The notes under the pieces are model-generated. The model had not been told where the DNA came from. It did no database searches and worked only from the letters and a program-made list of their open reading frames with translations. Shown in pieces: positions 11,571-58,210 of a stretch of DNA of 64,000 nucleotides. Positions within the stretch are counted from its first letter, which is position 1, and each line of letters opens with the position of its first letter. The stretch is from Candidatus Parvarchaeota archaeon. GTDB taxonomy: Archaea; Nanobdellota; Nanobdellia; WJKC01. The DNA is taken from NCBI GenBank assembly GCA_030615175.1, contig JAUWZX010000001.1:652044-716043 (forward strand), read 5' to 3'. The translations under genes and the position numbers were made by a program.

Positions 11571-13079
11571 ATGAAAATAGTTTACATTGGAGCAGGCTCA
11601 TTCCGCTTCTCAATATTCTTATTCTCAGACATCTGCCGGGCAGTAGAGATGTCACCCTTAGAAACCTGGTTAGTGGACATTGATAAAACATCATTAGAAC
11701 TCATGACAGGAGTGCTTAAGAATATGGCTGGAAAAGCAAAACGCAGAAACGGGATTGAAATTAAAGTACACTCCACAACAGACAGGATTAAAGCATTAGA
11801 AAACGCTGATGTAATATATAAGAGCATTTCAATTGGTATTCAGGCGCCTGAATGGTTTGATATTTACCTGCCATTAAAATTTGGAATCCCGCAGAATTCA
11901 GGCGGCGGATCAGGAGACTTACTTAGGAGTTTAAGAACTGACCCTGTAGTAGCTGACATAGTCCGCGACGTGAAGAAGTATTGCCCTAAAGCACTCTTAC
12001 TCAATTACACGAATCCAATGTGCACCGGCGTAATGACGGCGAAAACCACTGCACCTGAAGTTCAATTCATTGGCTTATGTCATGAATTATTTGGCGGAAT
12101 GAAAACACTAAATAAATGGTATAATAAGAAAATGAATGGTAAAGTAATGGATTGGAGGGATTTTGACATTGAATACGCTGGAATCAATCACTTCACTTTC
12201 TTAACAAAATTTGAATACCAGGGCAAAGACTTGTATCCGGAATTAAGAGCGCAGGCTCACCAATTAGTTCTTAAAAAATTCAATAAGAGAGGTTATAATT
12301 TTCACTTGCTGGAAAAGTATGGATACTTCCCTTACGCTGGCAGCCGGCACTTGGCAGAAGCCCTGCCTGATTATGATAATTACTTTAATTATAAAATACA
12401 GAGTCCTTACTGGAAGTTTCCGGTAATCCGCGACGTCTCAGGACTTAGCAGGATGAGGAAGTGGTTTTATAAATTCTATAAAATGATTGATAAAGGATTA
12501 ATCGTGCCAAAACCAAGGGATACCAGGGAAAAAGCAATAAACATGACTTTAGACTGGATGGATAGTTTTACAAACGACAATAATACTAATCACGTGGTAA
12601 ACATTCCTAACAAGCATCCGGGATTAGGAGTCATAGTCCCTCAACTGCCAGAGGACTGTATTGTTGAAGTGCCGGCTTACTTTAAAAACGGTGAAATCAC
12701 TCCAATAAAAAATATTGACCTGCCAGAAGAAGTAGCATGTCTTGTCCGCCCGCATGCAGAACAACAGAGGTGCAAGGTTAATGCCTCGCTTGGCAACAGT
12801 CTGGAATCATGCATAACTGCCATGCAGCATGACCTGATGGCTAATTGGATTGAAGATGATGATAAAATTGAATATTTAACCAAACTCATGTTATTCTATG
12901 AAAAACAATGGCTGCCAGAGGAGTGGAGTGAATGGATTCCAACCAGTGCAGAGCTTAAGGAATCAAAGTGGTGGGTGTCGCCAAAAGAACTCTCTAGAAA
13001 AGGAAACGCTTACCTGAAAATAAAATTCCCGCCAGACGAGAGATTAAGGAAAAAAGCATTCTTTTGGGATTATATATGA
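11571..13079 (+). CDS. Glycoside hydrolase family 4 (NAD-dependent alpha-galactosidase/glucosidase-like)
   Basis: KIVYIGAGS, LNYTNPM, GLCH, AGINHF, VEVPA. Confidence 0.92.
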   Translation: MKIVYIGAGSFRFSIFLFSDICRAVEMSPLETWLVDIDKTSLELMTGVLKNMAGKAKRRNGIEIKVHSTTDRIKALENADVIYKSISIGIQAPEWFDIYLPLKFGIPQNSGGGSGDLLRSLRTDPVVADIVRDVKKYCPKALLLNYTNPMCTGVMTAKTTAPEVQFIGLCHELFGGMKTLNKWYNKKMNGKVMDWRDFDIEYAGINHFTFLTKFEYQGKDLYPELRAQAHQLVLKKFNKRGYNFHLLEKYGYFPYAGSRHLAEALPDYDNYFNYKIQSPYWKFPVIRDVSGLSRMRKWFYKFYKMIDKGLIVPKPRDTREKAINMTLDWMDSFTNDNNTNHVVNIPNKHPGLGVIVPQLPEDCIVEVPAYFKNGEITPIKNIDLPEEVACLVRPHAEQQRCKVNASLGNSLESCITAMQHDLMANWIEDDDKIEYLTKLMLFYEKQWLPEEWSEWIPTSAELKESKWWVSPKELSRKGNAYLKIKFPPDERLRKKAFFWDYI

Positions 13080-14494
13080 ATACCATTGTTATTCTTGCTG
13101 ACAGTTTCAGAGCAGACCATCTCGGGTGTTATGCAAAATATATAGATGAATCCAAGAACAAGGGTCTTGGTCCTACACTGCCTGTGAAGACGCCCAGTCT
13201 TGACAGACTAGCGAAAGAAAGCTCATTATTTTATCATGCTTATCCGGAAAGCATGCCTTCAATTCCTGTGAGGACTTCATTATTCACAGGGAGATATACT
13301 TTTCCTTTCAGGAGGATTCTTAAGAAGAAAGATATACTCTTGTCAGACGTTCTTGGAAGGAATGGTGTGGAAACAGGATTAGTTACAGACTTGTGGGTTT
13401 TGTTCCGGTTTAATTATGATAGGGGTTTTAAATCAAAGAAGTTCATTCAGGGCCAGAAATATGATTTTGCAAAGACTTCCAGCTGCTATAAATACAAAAA
13501 GAAAGAGGGAGGAACTCTGGAGAAATTTTTATTGAAATTAAACGGCTTAAAAGAGTTTGGAAGAGAATTAACTAATAAACCTACCATAAACTGGCTGAAA
13601 GGGCTTGTAAAGGATGGTATATTCAAGCGCGAGCAGGATACTTTTGTTGCAAGGACGATGAGGGCAGCAGAATCCTATCTTGACAATCATAAAGGAGAAG
13701 ATAATCTGTTCCTGTGGGTTGACAGTCTTGACCCTCATGAACCGTGGAATCCTCCGCCTCCTTTTAACAGAATGTACAACAAGGATTATGATGGTATGGA
13801 CATCATTTCTCCTGAGCAAGGACTTATTAAAAATTATTTAAGCAGGGAAGAATTATTTAACACGCGCTCCCTTTACGCAGGTGAAATAAGTCTTGTTGAC
13901 AAATACGTCGGCAAGTTCGTGACATACTTAAAAGAGGAAGGGTTGCTGGACAACTCACTTCTCATATTCCTTTCCGACCACGGCGAACCCCTTGGCGAGA
14001 AACATGGAGAACTTCATGAACGAATAATAAAGAAAGCAAGACCATGGCTGTATCAGGAATTAATAAGGATTCCTCTTATGATAAGGCATCCTGAAGGTTA
14101 TGGTGCGGGGGAAAGCATTGGCAGCATGGTACAGACTTGTGACATAATGCCTACAATACTTGATTACATGAATGTGGAAGGGCCTTCAGTGATGGACGGG
14201 GAAAGCCTTATCCCGCTAATTAAGGGAGAGAAGGATAAAATCAGGGATTATGCTTACATTGGGAAATTCGGTCAGTCCTGGAGTATCAGGACGCCGGAAT
14301 ACAGTTTCCACAGGTGGATGAAAGACCCTCCTGAATTATATAACCTGACTAATGACTTATATGAAAAAAATAATATAATCAGGGAAGAGTTCGGCATTGC
14401 AAAAAAACTTGATTCCGAGCTTGAAGGTTTCATAAAAGAATTATGGAAAAAGCATTCTCATGAAAAGAAAAGACAAAGGTTCGGTTTATGGTGA
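13076..14494 (+). CDS. Sulfatase (Ser-type signature)
   Basis: ILADSFRADHLGCY, SIPVRTSLFTGRY, DPHEPW, SDHGE; ATGA overlap with the GH4 gene. Confidence 0.92.
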   Translation: MNTIVILADSFRADHLGCYAKYIDESKNKGLGPTLPVKTPSLDRLAKESSLFYHAYPESMPSIPVRTSLFTGRYTFPFRRILKKKDILLSDVLGRNGVETGLVTDLWVLFRFNYDRGFKSKKFIQGQKYDFAKTSSCYKYKKKEGGTLEKFLLKLNGLKEFGRELTNKPTINWLKGLVKDGIFKREQDTFVARTMRAAESYLDNHKGEDNLFLWVDSLDPHEPWNPPPPFNRMYNKDYDGMDIISPEQGLIKNYLSREELFNTRSLYAGEISLVDKYVGKFVTYLKEEGLLDNSLLIFLSDHGEPLGEKHGELHERIIKKARPWLYQELIRIPLMIRHPEGYGAGESIGSMVQTCDIMPTILDYMNVEGPSVMDGESLIPLIKGEKDKIRDYAYIGKFGQSWSIRTPEYSFHRWMKDPPELYNLTNDLYEKNNIIREEFGIAKKLDSELEGFIKELWKKHSHEKKRQRFGLW

Positions 14495-14499
14495 TAACC

Positions 14500-16971
14500 T
14501 TATTTGTTTTTCAAACATTTTTTCATCACAGTATAAATGCCAAAAGGCTCTATTTCTAATTCATCTGCCTGCTCTTCATCTTCCTCTAACAGGTTAACAA
14601 GAGAAAACCCTTCAGGCAAAGAGATTTTTCTTTCATTATTAGTATAATTGAACAGTCTGTACACAATTGAATCCGAATCCTCTGCTTTTTTCACAGCAGA
14701 AACCATAACTCCGTCTACTCCAAAATCCAGGAAACAGTTTTCCAGGGGCAGTTTCCCATCCTGGGAAGATATTCTCTCCGCGTGTATAGGATTATTAAAT
14801 TCCTCTCCTGTCTTGTAAGAATCACTTTTTGAAATACAGTACTCAAACACGTACTCTCCTTTCATCATGCCTTTTGGTGTTGGTAATCCCAAATCCGGGC
14901 TCATACACTTCTCTCCAACAACCCTCATACTCCTCAATAACCCCATCTCCAGCACGCCGTGCTCCAGTTTATGCTCAACAACACCCTTGTTCGCAACAGT
15001 AACGCCGCCCACTCTCACATAATTCACTGCTGGAAAAATCTGCCCTTCCCTTGTCTCCAGCTCGCCATAAGGAATCTGCCTGTAGAAATCACCTTCCACG
15101 CCCTCAAAGCATGCATTAATTTTTGAAAGACTTCCATCATGAACTATCCTTGTCTTAAAATCTATTCTTCCAAAATCCCTTAAAACAACTTCCTGCACCA
15201 CCTCGTCCCCGCCAATCATGCCTTTTATAACTATTTTCCCGGAACCAGATTCGCACTCCACACTTGACAAACCCTCAACTCTTTTTCTTTTCTTATCATA
15301 AAAATACCCGCCGCCCCTCTTCAATTCATCCAATGAAAGATAACTATTATACACTTTACTGGTGCTCTTGTCAGTTATTTCCACTGCTCCATTTTCCCCA
15401 ACTTCAACTTTAAAGTCATTGTTTTCCATCAACCCTTTAACTTCACTATTTCCTTCCACTACCCTGACAGTAGTATACCCTATTGCAGGGATTTCTGGTG
15501 AAACAAACTCAACAATATTACCATCTCTTTGATAACTAATCTCTTCATCATTAACGTCAACCAGACTGAAATCACCATCAAAATCAACCTCCACTTTTAC
15601 AATACCCTTCCTGCTCCAACCTAACTGGTTAAAAAGAACAATGCCTTCCCCGTCACAATCAATGCTGCCAGCAATGAAACCGCCAGCTCTTTCAATAATG
15701 CTATCAAGAATAGAGTCGCACCTTCCATATCTCTCCATTGCCCTGTCATAAACCTCGTCAACATGACATCCGCATATCACGTCATGGAACTGGTTGACCA
15801 TGATTAATTCAAGAGAATTATCCAAACACTCTTTATCATATTCCTTTCCAAGAATGAAGGCTATTGTCCCCATTGTCTCAGCCAGTTTATACTTATTCTC
15901 CATCTCCCGGTTCTTCGTCTTGATATCCATTCTGGACGTGTACACGCCTGAAAGAGCAGGATTCAAGTCCCCGCTTAATATTGGAAGCCTGTTTCCTGCA
16001 TCTTTAAAATACTCCTCTATGCTTCCGTGAACAATATCATAACCCTTGTTTTTCAATGCCTTCATAATATTCTTCATTCTAGGGTGGGGGCGGCTGAAAT
16101 CAGCACCAAGCGGCAGGAGCACTGGCATGGACTCAAGCATGCCTAAACTCTTCTCAAGATGCATTTTTTCCGTAACCTTTGGCAGAAACCTGCCTGCACG
16201 CAGGAATTTATCCAGAACCTTTCTTAAACCCGGACGGTCATCAAGCACGCTCTCTGGTATTTTTTCAGGATAACGCAGATGCGCAATACCATACCCTGCT
16301 TTAATGAAATTGAAGATAACCTTATCCTCATTCAAACCCTTCCAGTAAAAATTTTCAGGGGTGCTCTCATGAACTCCTCTCCTGCCAACATAATAATCAA
16401 TACCTGATTTCTTCAATATCTGGGGAAGATTATTTGAGTGCCCGAAACTGTCAATATTCCAGCCAACTTTCACGTCCTTGCCAAATATCTTCCTTATCCT
16501 CTTCTTTCCAACAAGGACCTGCCTCACAAGGCTTTCACCGCAGGGGATATTCAAATCAGGCTGCACAAACATGCCTCCTACCGGCTCTACTCTCCCTTCA
16601 TCAACAAGTTTTTTTAAAAGCGTGAACTCAGCTTCCCTTCTCGGCAGGTGTGAAAGATTGTTATTGTTTATTATGTAATCCAACTCTTCTTTGGGCGGGT
16701 CATCCCTGTAATTGAGAAACAAGTTCCTGATAAATTCACTAAGATTCACTGGCTTCTCTCTTTCACCCTTAACGTATTCTTGAGACATTAAAGCATTATA
16801 AGCAAACAATGGCTGGTCCAGCACGAAATGCCTGTCAGGCTCTTTGTAAAGGGTGACAATAACATCCCTCATGATTGAAGAAGTGATTCTTGAGTAGCCT
16901 CCTTCCCATGTCTTAAGCCAGTCATGGTCCAGGTGCGAGTGCTCTGCCAGGAAGGCTTTTTTCTTTGGCAT
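14500..16971 (-). CDS. Glycoside hydrolase family 38 (alpha-mannosidase-like)
   Basis: HSHLDHDW, GESLVRQ, WNIDSFGHS, NQFHDVICG. Confidence 0.92.
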   Translation of the reverse strand: MPKKKAFLAEHSHLDHDWLKTWEGGYSRITSSIMRDVIVTLYKEPDRHFVLDQPLFAYNALMSQEYVKGEREKPVNLSEFIRNLFLNYRDDPPKEELDYIINNNNLSHLPRREAEFTLLKKLVDEGRVEPVGGMFVQPDLNIPCGESLVRQVLVGKKRIRKIFGKDVKVGWNIDSFGHSNNLPQILKKSGIDYYVGRRGVHESTPENFYWKGLNEDKVIFNFIKAGYGIAHLRYPEKIPESVLDDRPGLRKVLDKFLRAGRFLPKVTEKMHLEKSLGMLESMPVLLPLGADFSRPHPRMKNIMKALKNKGYDIVHGSIEEYFKDAGNRLPILSGDLNPALSGVYTSRMDIKTKNREMENKYKLAETMGTIAFILGKEYDKECLDNSLELIMVNQFHDVICGCHVDEVYDRAMERYGRCDSILDSIIERAGGFIAGSIDCDGEGIVLFNQLGWSRKGIVKVEVDFDGDFSLVDVNDEEISYQRDGNIVEFVSPEIPAIGYTTVRVVEGNSEVKGLMENNDFKVEVGENGAVEITDKSTSKVYNSYLSLDELKRGGGYFYDKKRKRVEGLSSVECESGSGKIVIKGMIGGDEVVQEVVLRDFGRIDFKTRIVHDGSLSKINACFEGVEGDFYRQIPYGELETREGQIFPAVNYVRVGGVTVANKGVVEHKLEHGVLEMGLLRSMRVVGEKCMSPDLGLPTPKGMMKGEYVFEYCISKSDSYKTGEEFNNPIHAERISSQDGKLPLENCFLDFGVDGVMVSAVKKAEDSDSIVYRLFNYTNNERKISLPEGFSLVNLLEEDEEQADELEIEPFGIYTVMKKCLKNK

Positions 16972-17036
16972 AAAAAATTGATAAATCAGCATAATATAAA
17001 AGTTTATAATTTTGAGGAATACTAAAAGAGTCAGAA

Positions 17037-19430
17037 ATGAAAGCAGTAATAATTGATAAATTAAAAGGCTTGGATGACTGCTTATTCACTGAACCTGTTT
17101 TAATACCAAAACCAAAAGAGGTTCATAAATTAAGTAATCATGCGTACTCACTAACACCTGAATCAACAATTAGTCACGTTAATATTGAAGAAAGCAATGA
17201 CTTGGAAGGCTTATTAGATGCTGATAATGAGGAAGCATATAATTTAGAAGTTAAGGATGAAAGAGTAAGGATTTACTCTAATCATGAGAAAGGACTGTAT
17301 TATGGAATGCAGACTTTAATCCAGTTAATGAAGAATACGCGTTTAATTCCTGAAATAAGAATAAGGGATGCGCCTGACTTTAAAGTCAGGGGAGTGGCGC
17401 AGGACATATCACGAGGACAGGTTTTCACTATTGAAAACGCTAAGAGGTACATCAAGGTTTTAAGCCATTATAAGATGAACACGTACTGCCTCTACCTTGA
17501 AGACATGTTCGCTCACCCGAAACACCCTTTAATAGGCAGTAACCGCGGGGCACTGACAGTAGAGGAAGTAAAGGAATTAGATGAGTATGCAAGAAAACAT
17601 TACATTGAATTAATACCTATTTTCGAATGTTTCGGGCATGCAGATAACATATTAACTCATAAGGAATACGCGCATTTAGGCGAGTTCCCTGGAGCTCAAT
17701 GCTTTGATGCTTCAAACCCTGAGTATTATTCATTCATTAATGATTATATTTCATTATTAAGTGAAACGTTCTCCACTGACTGCTTTCATATAGGGTGTGA
17801 TGAGAGTTTTGATTTTGGCAGGCTGCGAACCAGAGGCTTGGTTAAGGAAAAAGGCAGGAGCACAGCATTAACTGAGGTGTATGAGAGGATATATGAAATC
17901 ACTAAAAGGAATGGTAATAAACACATCATAATGTATGATGATGTATTAAGACTGGATAAGGGGATTCAAAGAAAATTGAATAAGGACATAATCTTAATGT
18001 ACTGGAATTATGCTTCTAAAAAAAGGCATCCAAGTTTAAAGAAGTATTTAAACGCAGGCTTTAAAGTCATAGTCAGTCCATCAATGCTTAATTTACAGAG
18101 AAATTTTCCTGACAATAAGAATTCAAGCAGTAACATAATAAATTTTGTGAAAACAGCTTATGATTACAGGGATAGGGGCTGCCTGGGCGTGTTGACTTCC
18201 ACATGGCAGGGTCAGAGGTTTCATTCACTGCGGGAAAACGAGGTATTCGGGGCAGTTCTCACTGCAGGGGTTTCATGGAGTACTAAAGGATTTGATTATG
18301 AAACATTTAAACAGGATTACGGGCACTTATTTTACGGTATTAAGAAAGAAAAATTAAAGTCATTTAATGAATTATTCACTCTTTTAAGTTCATCTGCATC
18401 AAAGTATTATTTAAAATTCCTTAATATACCATTAACTACAATACACCCTCCGTTTGGCACTTACATGTTTAAACATCCTTTAATTAGGAAGAATGATTTT
18501 GAAGAATTAGGTGATTTAGGCGTTAAGTGTTTAAGGTTATATGATGAACTTAAGCCAGGCGTGTTATTTGAACGTGAAAACTTTGAGTGCATGGAATTCG
18601 GCGCTGAACTGGCAAAGTACTTGGGGAATAATAAGAAAGAGGATGCCAGTTACATTAGGGATAGATATGAGGAATTATGGTTGAGAGCTGCTAAGAGGCC
18701 TGGTCTGGATGAAATACTGAAACGCTTTGACACGTTAATCAGGCAGTATGATGAGGAAGCCGTTAAAGATCCTTATCTGCCATCTGAATGGATTTGGGCT
18801 AGAGAGAAGACCTGCCCTGTTAAACCGCGTTATTTCAGGAAGGTAATTGAGATTGATGGGCCGGTAAAGAAAGCGGTTATTCAGGGGGTTGCCTGCAATC
18901 AAATGAATGTTTATGTAAACAATCATTATGTTGGGGATGTTTTTTCAAGATTCTCATTATCCGTTCTCCCTGTTAAGAACAGGGTTAAGGCGTGGGATGT
19001 GACAAGATATTTGAATGAGGGTAAGAATGTTATTGCTATCAAAGCATTTAATTATGAGGGATTTAAGGGTGCTGTTAATCTTTATGGTCAAATCCAATTA
19101 AGCGGTGATTCATTAATTAAGGAAATAAAAACTGACAGGACGTGGGTTACTCAGAAGAAGATGATATATAATAGTGATGATTGGAGGCAGTTAAGTTTTA
19201 ATGATGATGACTGGAGAACAGCTAGATCTTACGGTCGCCCGCCAGAGTATAATGGCGACATCTATACGCCTGATTTATTAAGCGGAGAAGTTTCAGATAC
19301 TCAGGATTATTTTGGAGTGCAGGGGCATTTTTATCATTTATTAAGGAATACTGCAGGCAGTTTCCTGACTCGTTTAATAAAGCCATTTATTCCAAAAATC
19401 ATTAAGAGTTTAAAGCCTCGCATTAACTGA
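17037..19430 (+). CDS. Glycoside hydrolase family 20 (hexosaminidase-like) with a C-terminal beta-sandwich domain
   Basis: RGVAQDISRG, FGH, FHIGCDE; C-terminal WIW..YFRK..VYVN..LNEGKNVIAI. Confidence 0.9.
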   Translation: MKAVIIDKLKGLDDCLFTEPVLIPKPKEVHKLSNHAYSLTPESTISHVNIEESNDLEGLLDADNEEAYNLEVKDERVRIYSNHEKGLYYGMQTLIQLMKNTRLIPEIRIRDAPDFKVRGVAQDISRGQVFTIENAKRYIKVLSHYKMNTYCLYLEDMFAHPKHPLIGSNRGALTVEEVKELDEYARKHYIELIPIFECFGHADNILTHKEYAHLGEFPGAQCFDASNPEYYSFINDYISLLSETFSTDCFHIGCDESFDFGRLRTRGLVKEKGRSTALTEVYERIYEITKRNGNKHIIMYDDVLRLDKGIQRKLNKDIILMYWNYASKKRHPSLKKYLNAGFKVIVSPSMLNLQRNFPDNKNSSSNIINFVKTAYDYRDRGCLGVLTSTWQGQRFHSLRENEVFGAVLTAGVSWSTKGFDYETFKQDYGHLFYGIKKEKLKSFNELFTLLSSSASKYYLKFLNIPLTTIHPPFGTYMFKHPLIRKNDFEELGDLGVKCLRLYDELKPGVLFERENFECMEFGAELAKYLGNNKKEDASYIRDRYEELWLRAAKRPGLDEILKRFDTLIRQYDEEAVKDPYLPSEWIWAREKTCPVKPRYFRKVIEIDGPVKKAVIQGVACNQMNVYVNNHYVGDVFSRFSLSVLPVKNRVKAWDVTRYLNEGKNVIAIKAFNYEGFKGAVNLYGQIQLSGDSLIKEIKTDRTWVTQKKMIYNSDDWRQLSFNDDDWRTARSYGRPPEYNGDIYTPDLLSGEVSDTQDYFGVQGHFYHLLRNTAGSFLTRLIKPFIPKIIKSLKPRIN

Positions 19431-43234: not shown

Positions 43235-45700
43235 TTAAAGCAACTTCTTTAATGTATAAATCCCGAACGATTCAACACATAATTCATTAATGCTCTCACC
43301 GTTCTCCTCTAATAAGTCAGTCAGTAAGTAATCATTCACTTGAATGCTTTCAGGATGATTAGTTGGATTAAATAACCTGTAAATTAGGCTGTCATCAACT
43401 TCGGCTTTCTTCACAGCAGTGACTGCAAGCCTGCCAGGATTAAAGTCAAGAAAACTATAAGACTTTGGCAGTGAGCCATTACTGCCATTAATGTTAACAG
43501 CGAATAAAGGATTATTAAATTCCTCACCGCACCTGTAAGCATCACCAGTACAGAAAGCATAATCAAAAGATTGCAGTCCGCGCATCAAAGCTAAAGGAGT
43601 AGGAATAGAAGGACCCTGAAAGAATAAGGATTCGCTGACAACTCTGGACCCGCGCAGTAAACCAAGTTCAAGGCAGCCGTCACGCAGCACGTGCTCGACC
43701 ACTCCTTTATTAAGAATTGAGTAATCATCAAGACGGACATAATTTAGTGCAGGGAAAGCGCGTTCTCCGCTAGTCCTTAATTCGCCGTAAGGAATCTGCC
43801 TGTGAAAATGAGAATTCTTAAAACCATTGAATACGGCATTAACTTTAGAGATGCTGCCATCATGCTTAATCCATGTCTTGAAATCAATCCATGGCAGGCC
43901 ATGCAGCGATACTTCCTGAACTACCTCATCCCTGCCAAGAAAACCTCTGACAAGAAGTTTATCAAAAGAGTTGCCGTGAAGAACATTAAACTCAACACTG
44001 GATAAGCCGTTAATGCTGGCACCGCTCTTCTCATAAGAGTAACCGCCGCTGCGTACTAAATCATTAATAGATAAGTAACTGCGTAATCCTTTATTCAGGA
44101 TGAGAGTGCCGTTATCAGAAATCCCAACACTAAATAATTCATCCTGGATAAAATTAGTCCTGGACGTTGAAGCAGCAGGATTCGGAGTGCTGGAAGGAAT
44201 AATTCTTATAACATGATAACCAAGTGCTGGTACTGTAGGGGAAGTGAATTCAATAAAGTCATCATTAACAAAATCATAAGGCACTGCCATGCCATTTGAA
44301 TCAAGCAAGTTAAAAAAGCCATTAGAATTAACGCGCGTCCTGACAACGCCTCTGCGCGGCCATGATAACTGGTTAAACAGGATTAAAGCATTACCATTAC
44401 ATTCTACATTGTCACTGATGAAGGTGGAGGAATGATTAATAAGCGAGTCAAGGATGGATTCAGCTTTCTCAAACCTGTTCATGGCATCCAGGTAAACACT
44501 GTCAATACAGCACCCGCAGATAGTGTCATGAGAATGATTTAATAAGATTAAGTCAAGGGATGAATCAAGACTGTCACTGTCATATTCTTTGCCTATTGAT
44601 GAAGCCATGGATTCAAGAATTTCAGCAAGCCTGTACTTGCCTTCAACCTCGTTATTCATGATTTTGAAATCAGACCTGCATGAATAAACGCCTTCAAAAA
44701 CAGGATTAAAGTCGCCGCTTAAAACAGGCAAATCACTATCAGACACTTCCTTAAAGTAACCATTCAGGTCGCCGTGCCTGACAGCATAATCCTTGCGCTT
44801 GAAGAAATCCAAAATCATTTTAAGCCTTGGATGGGGTTCAGTGAAATCAGAGCCGAGAGGGATAAAGAGGTAATCATTTAGGCTAATATGTTTAAAGTGT
44901 TTGAGAGTCTTTTTTAAGTTAAGTTTTTCAAGGATGCCGGGAATGAATTTGAAGAATTTTAAACACTTATTCAGGATTTTCAATATGCCAGGATGCCCTG
45001 ATAAGTAATCATCAGGAAGCCTTTCAGGGAAGGGTATTCTGCCAATAGAGTAGCCGCTGGCAAGAAAGCTGGTAAGGATTTCATCACCATTCAAACCCTT
45101 CCAGTAGAATTCAGTTGGTGTGGACTTGACTTCACTGCCGGATTTATAATATTCAGGTATGCCTCTCCACGCCACGTAAGCATTAAAACCTGCTTTCTTA
45201 AGAATCTGGGGCAGGTTGTTAGAGTGCCCGAAGCTGTCAATATTCCAGCCCACTTTCACGTCCTTGCCAAACACCTTTCTTATCCTCTTCTTGCCAATAA
45301 GGACCTGCCTCACAAGGCTTTCACCGCAGGGCATGTTCAGGTCAGGCTGGACGCGCATGCCTCCGGTAAGAATGACGCGGTCATCCAGGACTAAGTCCTT
45401 TAATGATTCAAGCAGTGAGTTGCCGGGCTTAACGCTTTTATCATAATTAATGAATGCGTCAGTTAATAATTCAGAAAGGTTTCTGGAGTAAGAAAATCTG
45501 TCACCAGTGAATTCAGGACTGTTCAGGGCGTCAGCAACCACTAATGGCTGTCCAAGGATATAGCGCCTGTCATCATCACTGCGCAATGTAGTGATTACGT
45601 TGTTAATAATGCCTTTAATGTAGTCAGAGTAAACGCCTGCCCTCTTAATCCATTCCAAGTCAATATGACCATGTTCAAACAAGTAAATAACTGGCACCAT
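43235..45700 (-). CDS. Glycoside hydrolase family 38, paralog of 14500..16971
   Basis: HGHIDLEW, WNIDSFGHS, NHSHDTICG. Confidence 0.92.
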   Translation of the reverse strand: MVPVIYLFEHGHIDLEWIKRAGVYSDYIKGIINNVITTLRSDDDRRYILGQPLVVADALNSPEFTGDRFSYSRNLSELLTDAFINYDKSVKPGNSLLESLKDLVLDDRVILTGGMRVQPDLNMPCGESLVRQVLIGKKRIRKVFGKDVKVGWNIDSFGHSNNLPQILKKAGFNAYVAWRGIPEYYKSGSEVKSTPTEFYWKGLNGDEILTSFLASGYSIGRIPFPERLPDDYLSGHPGILKILNKCLKFFKFIPGILEKLNLKKTLKHFKHISLNDYLFIPLGSDFTEPHPRLKMILDFFKRKDYAVRHGDLNGYFKEVSDSDLPVLSGDFNPVFEGVYSCRSDFKIMNNEVEGKYRLAEILESMASSIGKEYDSDSLDSSLDLILLNHSHDTICGCCIDSVYLDAMNRFEKAESILDSLINHSSTFISDNVECNGNALILFNQLSWPRRGVVRTRVNSNGFFNLLDSNGMAVPYDFVNDDFIEFTSPTVPALGYHVIRIIPSSTPNPAASTSRTNFIQDELFSVGISDNGTLILNKGLRSYLSINDLVRSGGYSYEKSGASINGLSSVEFNVLHGNSFDKLLVRGFLGRDEVVQEVSLHGLPWIDFKTWIKHDGSISKVNAVFNGFKNSHFHRQIPYGELRTSGERAFPALNYVRLDDYSILNKGVVEHVLRDGCLELGLLRGSRVVSESLFFQGPSIPTPLALMRGLQSFDYAFCTGDAYRCGEEFNNPLFAVNINGSNGSLPKSYSFLDFNPGRLAVTAVKKAEVDDSLIYRLFNPTNHPESIQVNDYLLTDLLEENGESINELCVESFGIYTLKKLL

Positions 45701-50229: not shown

Positions 50230-51108
50230 TTACATAACTCTTTCAAGGCTCGCGACTAATCCTTTAGTTTTCTTCCTGATTTCCTTGCTAGTCATTTCCG
50301 CCTTGCCCAGGGCTATTAATTCATCATCAATGCTTATTAATGCTATAAGTTCTCCTCTAATTATTCCTTTATTATACTTGCATACGCCTGGCGCGTAGAC
50401 TTTTGAGCCGTGCCCTACTCTTTGAACTGTTTTATCATCAATCCATACTTTCTTTAAGTGCTGTACTGCCCTCTCAACTGGTGCTAAGTATTTCTTAGGA
50501 TTCTTTTTGAATTCTTCCAGCGGCACTGCATTCTTCAGCGTGAACGGTCCTGCCTTAGTTCTGCGCAAGTGCTTCATGTGTGCTTTAGTGTTCATTAATT
50601 CACCCCAGTCTGAACAAATCTTCCTGATGTAAGTTCCTGCTTCGCATCCTATGGTGAAGTAAACTTCCCTGCCTTCTATTTTAGTGATTTTTAAGTAGTA
50701 TACTTCCCTCTCCCTTTCCTGTCTCTTCACTGCTGAGCGTACTGGCGGCACTTGCTTGATTATGCCGGTAAATTCCTTCCTGGTCTCGCGTATCTTCTTC
50801 TTCGTGACGTCTGAGTGCACGTGCATCACGCACTCGTATTCCTTGTCAGTTCTTAATGCTGTAAGCACTTTAGTGCTGTCATTAAATCCTATTGGCAGGA
50901 CTCCTGAAGCTTTAGGGTCTAATGTGCCTGCATGACCTGCCTTCCTTGCATGAAGTGCTTTCTTTACTTTATCAGTCACCCAGTATGAGAATGGTCCTGA
51001 AGGCTTGTCAATGATTATTAATTCACTTCTTGGCTTGAATGCCTTCTTAGCCCTGCACTTCTTCTTAGCCAGCTCTTTATATTTCTTTTCAATTGGCAGT
51101 TTATTCAT
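50230..51108 (-). CDS. cbf5: Pseudouridine synthase Cbf5/TruB with PUA domain
   Basis: IDKPSGP, GHAGTLDP, PPVRSAVKR, CEAGTYIRK. Confidence 0.96.
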   Translation of the reverse strand: MNKLPIEKKYKELAKKKCRAKKAFKPRSELIIIDKPSGPFSYWVTDKVKKALHARKAGHAGTLDPKASGVLPIGFNDSTKVLTALRTDKEYECVMHVHSDVTKKKIRETRKEFTGIIKQVPPVRSAVKRQEREREVYYLKITKIEGREVYFTIGCEAGTYIRKICSDWGELMNTKAHMKHLRRTKAGPFTLKNAVPLEEFKKNPKKYLAPVERAVQHLKKVWIDDKTVQRVGHGSKVYAPGVCKYNKGIIRGELIALISIDDELIALGKAEMTSKEIRKKTKGLVASLERVM

Positions 51109-51132: not shown

Positions 51133-51522
51133 TTAAAAATAGTTTTGCTTAATGCTTTCTCGCAGTACGTCAAGAAGTTCTTCAGGCTTTTTTATTAATT
51201 TTACTTCCTTTAAAATTTTTGTTAAGTCGCTTGCCATTTCATCTACTTTATCTGCATTGTCTCCAATAATGATTCCGATATGCCCTCCGCGCGCGTACCC
51301 TTCCTGCATTTCTTTAAACCTTTCATCAGGATATAGTATCCATATCTGGTACTTGACTGAATGCCCTTCTATGTTCTGCGTTAGGGTTGCGAAATCCGTT
51401 CCAACAATGTTTCCATTATTGCTCATTAAATTTTCATATTCATTAATGTAGTCTTTAATCTCAGTATAGTATTTCTCGTCTTGCGGTTTTATTACTATTT
51501 TAAACAGTGAGTCATAAGTCAT
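51133..51522 (-). CDS. Rab-like small-GTPase derivative lacking the P-loop
   Basis: YDSLFKIVI, VGTDF, KYQIW, ERFKE, YARGG. Confidence 0.7.
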   Translation of the reverse strand: MTYDSLFKIVIKPQDEKYYTEIKDYINEYENLMSNNGNIVGTDFATLTQNIEGHSVKYQIWILYPDERFKEMQEGYARGGHIGIIIGDNADKVDEMASDLTKILKEVKLIKKPEELLDVLRESIKQNYF

Positions 51523-51559
51523 TTTTAAATCACCATTTTAGTATTAAAAATATTCCTTT

Positions 51560-51970
51560 TTAAAGGTTTCTTTTTCTAATAACTGCTTCAAGGGTTTCGT
51601 AAGTCGCTTTAATCAGGTTTTCAGGTTTGTTTATTATAGTTGCTCTGTCAATATACTGCATTAATTCGTCTGTCATTTCATTTAATTTATCCGCGTCGCT
51701 TCCAATAATGATTCCAAGCGCTGCACCCCCGTAATAATCTTTGCGCAGGGATTTGAATTTGTCATCAGGAGATATTATCCATATCTGTCCTGTGACTGTT
51801 CGCCCTTCTAATTCTTTTGTTATGGTGGCGAAGTCTACGCCAAGACTGTTTTTATACCCGAATAAGCAGCCGCTCTTCCTGTAAGCCTTAATGTATTGTT
51901 TAACGTTATTATATAATTTCTTGCCCTGGACTCGAATCACTACTTTCAGTAGTATGTTTTTTTTGTTCAT
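51560..51970 (-). CDS. Rab-like small-GTPase derivative lacking the P-loop (tandem paralog)
   Basis: LLKVVI, LGVDFATIT, GQIW, KFKSLR, YYGGA; alternative start at 52030. Confidence 0.7.
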   Translation of the reverse strand: MNKKNILLKVVIRVQGKKLYNNVKQYIKAYRKSGCLFGYKNSLGVDFATITKELEGRTVTGQIWIISPDDKFKSLRKDYYGGAALGIIIGSDADKLNEMTDELMQYIDRATIINKPENLIKATYETLEAVIRKRNL

Positions 51971-52040
51971 TGCAATTAGTTGCCCCGATAATTTATGCCT
52001 GATTAAGTTTAAAAATCTTCCCCTTTCCATTGCTTTGCAA

Positions 52041-52571
52041 CTATTTCTTCTTCACGGCTTTTTTCTTTGCAGGCTTCTTCACTACTTTCTTCTTGGCCTT
52101 CTTCTTAACTGCTTTCTTCTTCACAGGAGCTTTCTTCTTCACTGCTTTCTTCTTTGGCACTTTCTTAGCTGCCTTCTTCTTTACAGGCTTCTTAACTGCT
52201 TTTTTCTTGGCTTTCTTCTTGGGTTTCTTCTTGGCTTTCTTCTTCGGCACTTCCTCAAAAATTTTCTTTACTGCATGCTTCTTCCTTGGCCTCTCAGTCT
52301 TCTTCTCCTTCTTATCTTTCTTCCTAATCTTCTTAATCTCAGTCTTCCATAACCCTGCCTTTTTCAACGCTACCTTAACGTCTTCAGTTTTTGCTTTGCC
52401 CTTAATTTCCAGTTTAAACTCAAGAGGTATTAAGTGATTCACATTGCACCTGCGCCTCTTAACTTCACCATCAATTAGTACAAAATTATCATTTATTTTT
52501 TCAACAATCACTGCTTTAAGCCCTGCTTCTTTACCAGCAATCTTCACGTAAACTCTTCCAATTTCAATCAA
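52041..52571 (-). CDS. rpl14e: 50S ribosomal protein L14e with a long Lys/Ala/Pro/Val tail
   Basis: IEIGRVYVKIAGKEAG, NFVLIDG, KRRRCNVNHL. Confidence 0.95.
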   Translation of the reverse strand: MIEIGRVYVKIAGKEAGLKAVIVEKINDNFVLIDGEVKRRRCNVNHLIPLEFKLEIKGKAKTEDVKVALKKAGLWKTEIKKIRKKDKKEKKTERPRKKHAVKKIFEEVPKKKAKKKPKKKAKKKAVKKPVKKKAAKKVPKKKAVKKKAPVKKKAVKKKAKKKVVKKPAKKKAVKKK

Positions 52572-57232: not shown

Positions 57233-58210
57233 TTATATTATTTTGACATCTCTTCGCTTTAAAATTTTTATTGACTTCGGGAGAGTTTCTAATTTATTAT
57301 CATGTAACTCTAGTCTTTCGAGAGATTTTAGGTTTTTTATAGAATCCGGAAGAGTCGTTAACTGATTATACCCTAAATTTAGTGATTGGAGTGATTCTAA
57401 ATCTCCTATTGACTCAGGGAGAGCCGTTAATTGATTATAACTCAAATCTAGTTTCTGGAGTGATTTTAGGTTGCCTATAGATTCCGGAAGAGTCGTTAAC
57501 TGATTATACCCTACACTTAGTGATTGAAGTGATTCTAAGCCTCCCATTAACTCCGGGAGAGCTGATAATTGATTCTTATACAAATGTAGTTCTTCGAGAG
57601 ATTTCAGGTTTCTTATAGACTCTGGGAAAGTCCCTAATTTATTATCATGTAAATCTAGTTTTTGAAGTGATTCTAAATTTCTTACTGACTCCGGGAGGGT
57701 TTCTAATTTATTACCATGTAACTCTAGTTTTTGAAGCGATTCTAAGTTTCCCATTGACTCCGGGAGAGTCTTTAACTGATTATTATATAACAATAGTCTC
57801 TGGAGTGATTTTAAGTCGCCTATCGACTCTGGAAGAGCCGTTAACTGATTATACCCTACACTTAGTGATTGAAGTGATTCCAAGTCTCCCATTGATTCTG
57901 GGAGAGTCTTTAATTGATTATTATACAAATCTATTTTCTTGAGATATTTTAGGTTGCCTATTGACTCAGGAAGAGTTGATAACTGATTACCATGTAAATT
58001 TAGTGATTGGAGTGATTCTAAGTCTCCTATTGATTCAGGGAGAGCTGATAATTGTGTTTCATTTAATCCTAAACCAATAATGTCACCATCCTTAACTTTA
58101 AATCCGGTAGTGTCAATTTCTTCTACTTGCGGAATGGATTTACCAATAATCTTTTCCAATTCTTCCAGGACTTTCGCTTGATCGGGTTTTACATCATCTT
58201 TTTCAGTCAT
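57233..58210 (-). CDS. Leucine-rich repeat protein (about 11 x 23 aa)
   Basis: [23 protein letters not shown] repeats; 69-bp DNA periodicity. Confidence 0.97.

Follow-up and report, generated by a model that had tools for sequence, protein, structure and literature searches.

The window analysed here, 64,000 nucleotides long, is part of a 727-kb contig from a 1.02-Mb, 87% complete genome of a Candidatus Parvarchaeota archaeon (G000). The labels of relatives and homologues, Nanoarchaeia or Parvarchaeota, place it among the DPANN archaea in the class Nanoarchaeia; within our Nanoarchaeia genome set this genome has three other genomes in its family and no further kin at the level of order. Between rpl14e and cbf5 lie two small genes, A and B, whose products we call pseudo-Rabs (Table 1). 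Both genes are on the same strand as the flanking genes, with small gaps to each, and their products share 40% identity over 121 aa (E 2e-32). A reading of the DNA from its letters alone (hereafter the sequence-only reading) had described a tandem pair inserted between rpl14e and cbf5, and the above-cut-off model matches of the flanks confirm this arrangement. The frame of gene A is open to 52030 and its first ATG would give a protein of 156 aa (51560-52030); we prefer the start at 51970 because two other strains carry insertions at 51953-51980 and the N-terminus of a close homologue, P0005, differs. We take the GGTGA ahead of gene B to follow the ribosome-binding-site consensus, while a scan for sigma-70 promoters and terminators gave matches at chance level only, the sigma-70 model being unsuited to archaea. 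An independent cold-seep run yielded a 1293-base contig that covers the 5' end of cbf5 and both pseudo-Rab genes with 24 letters different, which rules out an assembly artefact. The long Lys/Ala-rich C-terminal tail of rpl14e occurs in three further genomes (G003, G004 and G023). Elsewhere in the window, genes for glycosidases and sulfatases cluster at positions 11571-19430, and positions 43235-45700 hold a second GH38 mannosidase.

Table 1. Genes and signals at the pseudo-Rab locus (positions are those of the window)
Feature	Position	Strand	Remarks
cbf5 pseudouridine synthase (flank, outside system)	50230..51108	-	NF003280 and TIGR00425 above cut-off
Pseudo-Rab gene B	51133..51522	-	129 aa; net charge -7; predicted Rab fold, truncated and without G1, G3, G4
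GGTGA, ribosome-binding-site-like motif	51530..51534	-	7 bases ahead of gene B start
Pseudo-Rab gene A	51560..51970	-	136 aa from ATG at 51970; net charge +9
rpl14e, Lys/Ala-rich tail (flank, outside system)	52041..52571	-	NF003320 above cut-off

Every motif quoted in the sequence-only reading, which had assigned segments of the two proteins to Rab beta1 and RabF1-F4, is found in them, and the closest PDB sequences agree with that assignment: these are Rab35, Ypt31, Rab1 and Rab11 (E 8e-7 for gene B and 3e-8 for gene A), with matches that extend over beta1 and switch I to beta4. The segments that we take to be RabF1-RabF4 align to Rab1, Rab35 and Ypt31, and there is no RabF5 match. The Pfam Ras scores of 18.4 and 17.5 bits are under the 21.6-bit cut-off, all Ras and Roc matches lie below their curated cut-offs, and none of the six family members tested matches an NCBIfam family. 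AlphaFold2 models built from a 14-row alignment have mean pLDDT values of 90.4 and 87.1 for the two window proteins and predict, in order, a strand, a helix, a short switch I segment, the beta2-beta3 hairpin, the switch II helix, a strand, a helix, a strand and a C-terminal helix, with five strands in each model. The P-loop is gone from the model because strand 1, which stops at residue 13, runs almost straight into a lengthened helix 1 that begins at residue 16. Foldseek, named as a check in the sequence-only reading, found similarity to the Ras/Rab fold, with Rab-family chains filling all of the top rows listed for both models. Likewise, VIA-align, which is independent of Foldseek, ranked Rab23 first (Z 14.6, rmsd 1.9 A, 125 of 129 residues placed on a 168-residue chain). 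Compared with Rabs, the predicted models have about 40 residues absent from the C-terminal half; we infer the loss of one helix together with one edge strand, G4/G5 included, the exact elements not being fixed by the outputs. The family census found no prenylation cysteines at the C-termini of the pseudo-Rabs.

Which residues were lost, which were replaced and which were kept? A column census of 15 family members mapped on a Rab1-type sequence shows that the G1 P-loop GxxxxGK[ST] and the G4 motif [NT]KxD are found in no member; the loss of P-loop, DxxG and NKxD claimed from the letters is confirmed in both window proteins and across all 15. At the P-loop Lys site 14 members have Tyr and one has Phe, the first G1 Gly site is Pro in 11 of the 15, and the G2 Thr site is Thr in four, neither window protein among them. 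At G3, the Asp site is Leu, Ile or Val and the Gly site is Pro in every member. The claim that the effector-facing surface is kept also stands, both across the family and in the Rab fold of the models: beta1 Lys8 (15/15), switch I Gly41 (14/15), triad Trp61 (15/15), an aromatic residue at the triad Tyr site (14/15) and, in switch II, Phe or Tyr (14/15) and Gly79 (15/15). The triad Phe site is Phe in nine members and Leu or Ile in six, and a Tyr directly follows the switch I Phe in nine of 15. The hydrophobic triad is described as a recognition motif for Rab effectors in the available part of PMC3327705; folding alone may explain why the positions with Trp, Phe and Gly are retained. Members share just 19-37% identity with the query, and because new residues are nevertheless fixed at dead catalytic sites, these replacements appear to point to a selected new state instead of decay.

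A three-sequence profile searched against 1.84 billion representatives gave 450 matches at E<=0.001, and at least 12 family members were chosen by eye among the 150 matches listed of these 450; with the genome matches included, the set holds at least 15 sequences, two of which are near-duplicates. Word-indexed homologue searches returned one protein with a single query and five with an alignment query. When 401 Nanoarchaeia genomes were scanned with the family profile, eight matched. Five of these (G000, G001, G067, G075 and G090, from two orders) carry family members that score above 110 bits, all being represented in the profile, and the remaining three matches, scoring 33-38 bits, are Rab-likes of intact or intermediate form. 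The family is found in three of the nine genomes of the second order; it was not found in the other six, nor in G002 or G003. The 218 pattern matches in viral contigs included no confirmed family gene, and a scan of metagenome contigs gave one locus and no family gene.

The family forms one clade in both trees, with support of 100/99 (15 of 84 rows) and of 99/96 (10 of 41 rows, mixture-model tree). Genes A and B are sister sequences in the two trees (99/83 and 95/89), and the tandem is therefore a local duplication. In one member of greater length, P0010, the entire architecture is that of a half-degenerate Rab-like found in G038 (22% identity over 245 aa, pairwise E 2e-10); this Rab-like is possibly an intermediate, although the two are not joined in the trees. 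Between G075 and G067 the pseudo-Rab gene has a dN/dS of 0.42, and four neighbour genes have 0.09-0.24. By this one pair, selection on the pseudo-Rab genes is apparently purifying, yet looser than on their neighbours, and that selection maintains the family we regard as very likely. In the literature, which was covered mostly as open-access text and apart from supplements (which may list such genes), no description of the family was found. It is a real, conserved family of archaeal pseudoGTPases that has apparently not been described before.

How might a Rab domain work without its switch? The pseudo-Rabs are not Rab GTPases in the strict sense and would work like a class i pseudoGTPase. We somewhat favour a switch-less adaptor in which a frozen Rab face holds a protein partner without GTP. 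With high confidence we predict that the pseudo-Rabs bind no GTP. Together, the invariant Tyr/Phe at the P-loop Lys site and the hydrophobic-x-x-Pro that stands in place of DxxG would fill the phosphate pocket and lock switch II in one shape. The putative partner probably binds through the triad face; it would dock on the face made of the beta1 Lys, the switch I Gly-x-x-Phe, the beta3 Trp and the switch II Tyr, and this effector face would be presented constantly, with the protein as a constitutive adaptor. The ancestor may have been an Asgard-type Rab-like GTPase gained by horizontal transfer, and the tandem pair would have arisen by local duplication within this genus. We give slightly better odds to action in the organism's own cytoplasm or at a site of host contact than to export into host cells.

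The closest functional parallels are CENP-M and AAGAB, which, in the available parts of PMC4080450 and PMC12490416, serve as binding modules, having lost both the same G motifs and the binding of GTP. The likeness covers a small-GTPase fold nearest to Rabs, lost G motifs, a predicted inability to bind nucleotide and a proposed binding-module role (same sources, in part). The losses differ in place: CENP-M deleted switch I and beta2 (PMC4080450, in part), whereas in the pseudo-Rabs beta2 and beta3 remain, as do the triad and switch II, and the part that is gone is the guanine-binding C-terminal one. Similarly, AAGAB is described as binding its partner on the face opposite the switches (PMC12490416, in part), whereas we propose the pseudo-Rab partner on the effector face. 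Unlike both, the pseudo-Rabs are archaeal, stand-alone and only 120-160 aa long. Thor-Rab (PDB 7EZB) resembles them in its RabF1-F4-like segments, its lack of C-terminal prenylation cysteines and its single domain, as far as the available text of PMC10933270 goes; it binds GDP and GTP and hydrolyses GTP (same text), whereas the pseudo-Rabs are without G1, G3 and G4 and about 40 residues shorter. The eukaryotic Rab1, Rab11 and Rab23 are the best matches in sequence and fold and share the conserved beta1 Lys, switch I Gly, triad and switch II Phe and Gly, but the pseudo-Rabs have no nucleotide motifs, no RabF5 match and neither a hypervariable tail nor its cysteines. The archaeal vesiculating GTPase ArvA/OapA is, in the available part of PMC10927574, likewise a small GTPase of DPANN; it is intact, Arf/EngB-like and widespread with arvB/arvC, and is not of the Rab-type pseudo-Rab family. 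Further related literature comprises PMC10134863, PMC12993045, PMC13162412 and 10.64898/2026.05.13.725050.

The source genome also encodes an intact Rab-like GTPase, L005 (C5:360928-361461, 108 bits). The family profile scores it at 2.9 bits, against medians of 37.7 bits for eukaryote-type and 35 bits for Asgard-like rows, which were picked by likeness to the query and whose scores are therefore inflated. Pseudo-Rabs as recent copies of this resident GTPase are thus out. L005 mirrors the pseudo-Rabs in reverse: G1, G2, G4 and G5 are retained, the triad Phe and Trp are gone, and Glu stands at the G3 Asp site. Its look-alike clusters are from Bacteroidota, Cyanobacteriota, Pseudomonadota, Thermoplasmatota and also Promethearchaeota; a word-indexed search with L005 under a strict E-value limit found three close relatives and no named donor. 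The sequence-only reading had called Rab-like GTPases characteristic of eukaryotes and Asgard archaea, yet 22 of the 401 Nanoarchaeia genomes have a Ras-family match at E<=1e-10, the source genome has an intact GTPase of its own, and L005 has the bacterial and Thermoplasmatota look-alikes just named.

Other Rab-likes of these archaea are reshaped in ways of their own. Two carriers have stand-alone, circularly permuted Rab-like GTPases (G075 L088:1300-1869 and 2309-2893, G067 L085:1486-2055, all on the minus strand) with the motif order G3-G4-G5-G1-G2. The same order is that of cpRAS in eukaryotic multidomain proteins (PMC2430557, in part), and the archaeal stand-alone form may be of independent origin. 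In G042 and G061, operons (L054, L056, L071 and L072) set two intact Rab-like GTPases around a gene of what we take to be a V4R/DUF835-like, Thermoplasmata-type kind, suggesting a different donor for family f10. Outside the pseudo-Rab family, eroded or missing P-loops or pieces are seen in L003 (G023), L037 and L084 (G038), L038 (G040) and L069 (G083), and in G038 one Rab-like gene is broken into three pieces. Rab-likes outside the family thus appear to have degenerated repeatedly and independently in these lineages.

Where did the family come from? We lean slightly towards an Asgard-type ancestry. The 84-row tree gives no resolution for the sister group of the family. The 41-row mixture-model tree splits the family together with Loki-like rows from eukaryote-type and other DPANN rows (80/87, unstarred); the Loki-like rows are archaeal-looking matches that we classed so, only one being named Promethearchaeota, and the labels are loose, one eukaryote-type row being labelled Gammaproteobacteria. 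The Tyr after the switch I Phe and the hydrophobic G3 site occur also in several Loki-like matches. As no more than a lead, the top sequence-atlas match of gene B is a Thorarchaeota cluster (0.90, 149 shared features). Of the 401 genomes, 16 have LRR genes; these include four of the five carriers and every genome of families f1 and f2, as against 0 of 7 and 1 of 17 genomes of the two families with the other Rab-like type. A Fisher test on this overlap was set aside, as the carriers are kin. Across the class, LRR genes cluster in families f1, f2, f3 and f5. The source genome has three LRR proteins (window 57233-58210, minus strand; C1:20898-21839; C1:71325-72404), whose style we take to be Lokiarchaeia-like. 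Motif detail, tree and LRR co-occurrence are weakly consistent with an Asgard source. In an EF-2 tree the carriers fall within one unresolved part, with the sister status of the two carrier orders not resolved, and shared inheritance of the family by the carriers is possible.

One alternative carries the Asgard link further: a symbiont would pass pseudo-Rabs via cytoplasmic contact into an Asgard host, where they would sequester roadblock/longin regulators or Rab effectors. We think this unlikely. It would fit a protein whose switch is lost and whose effector face is kept, and an in-house partner is not obvious, because roadblock proteins were not found in G000 (87% complete), G075 or G067, and conventional intact Rab-like genes were not found at E<=1e-10 in G075, G067 or G090. 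Longin-like queries from relatives likewise gave no clear match in G000. The runs that contain close strains sampled cold seeps and marine sediments, and such places are habitats of Asgard archaea. Neither window protein has a signal peptide or membrane segment (top 19-residue hydropathy 0.26 and 0.52), which would count against export, although passage across a cytoplasmic bridge makes an export signal unnecessary. Legionella, whose Rab-like proteins offer a precedent, has a type IV secretion route and a eukaryotic host, whereas no such route or host is identified for the pseudo-Rabs. Those proteins place a Rab-like domain in a host-dependent prokaryote and are suggested to subvert host trafficking, their function being given as unknown in the available part of PMC7542358. 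Lokiarchaeia are credited with 37 Rab-like, 38 roadblock and 41 longin proteins (PMC10933270, in part). The LRR genes, rare as they are, would fit as well, but the kinship of the carriers means that the overlap is not independent, and LRRs are described as promiscuous (10.1101/2020.10.19.343400, in part). Moreover, the trees do not single out a donor, and no DPANN partner of Asgard archaea was found described in the literature covered (mostly open-access text, supplements aside). That several Nanoarchaeia lineages living on Asgard hosts remodelled a Rab-like gene acquired from these hosts as a self-plugged, permanently exposed decoy jamming the host's roadblock/longin-Rab signalling is, in our estimate, rather improbable. 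Roadblock genes above the Pfam cut-off are present in G003 and G001 (L076 and L077), and G001 has a gene with a longin-like N-terminal domain, so labelled by eye, about 1.5 kb from a pseudo-Rab (L009:11263-12336).

Alternatively, two pseudo-Rabs may pair with each other through the conserved face, as a heterodimer here and as a homodimer where the gene is single. The opposite net charges of the window proteins speak for such a scaffold, as do the two copies of G001 and the further pairs P0017/P0027 and P0066/P0068, which are inferred from contigs of equal length and shared source. However, only one copy was found in each of G075 and G067, the pairs come from separate duplications, and the copies of G001 are 15 kb apart with one of them frameshifted, so that we hold a dimer scaffold to be a distinctly poor prospect.

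A third possibility, that the genes are functionless leftovers of a transferred GTPase in the course of decay, would account for the patchy distribution, the shifting neighbourhoods, the frameshifted copy in G001 and a dN/dS above that of the neighbours, and it has company in the three-piece Rab-like of G038 and the other independently degenerate Rab-likes in G023, G040 and G083. We consider it very unlikely given the dead catalytic sites at which members 19-37% identical to the query share fixed new residues, the confident fold, the frames that stay open in two orders and in other strains, and a dN/dS well under 1.

Finally, the position on the same strand as rpl14e and cbf5, with short gaps to both, could suggest helpers of ribosome or H/ACA RNP biogenesis, but this is highly improbable, since in G003 rpl14e directly adjoins cbf5 with nothing inserted and the setting is absent from all four other carrier genomes. 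There, by labels read from the sequence, the pseudo-Rab genes have as neighbours insertion sequences, a gene for an ATPase, or a nitroreductase together with a pair of membrane genes. Because G003 lacks the insert and the contexts of the other carriers differ, the ribosomal-gene neighbourhood is incidental; the site is a lineage-specific insertion with no functional link.

We therefore return to the constitutive adaptor as the preferred reading. The pseudo-Rabs would represent a minimal Rab scaffold, about 130 aa long, whose nucleotide pocket is apparently self-filled and whose effector face survives. As small soluble baits, they could be used to find prokaryotic binders of the Rab effector face, which bears on the origin of eukaryotic trafficking, an open question. 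The co-occurrence of pseudo-Rabs, LRR genes and reshaped Rab-likes in the same lineages names candidate Asgard symbionts. Should the pseudo-Rabs prove to be decoys aimed at such hosts, a proto-eukaryotic trafficking switch would have been mimicked inside the Archaea, and the family would provide a genomic marker for parasites of Asgard archaea.
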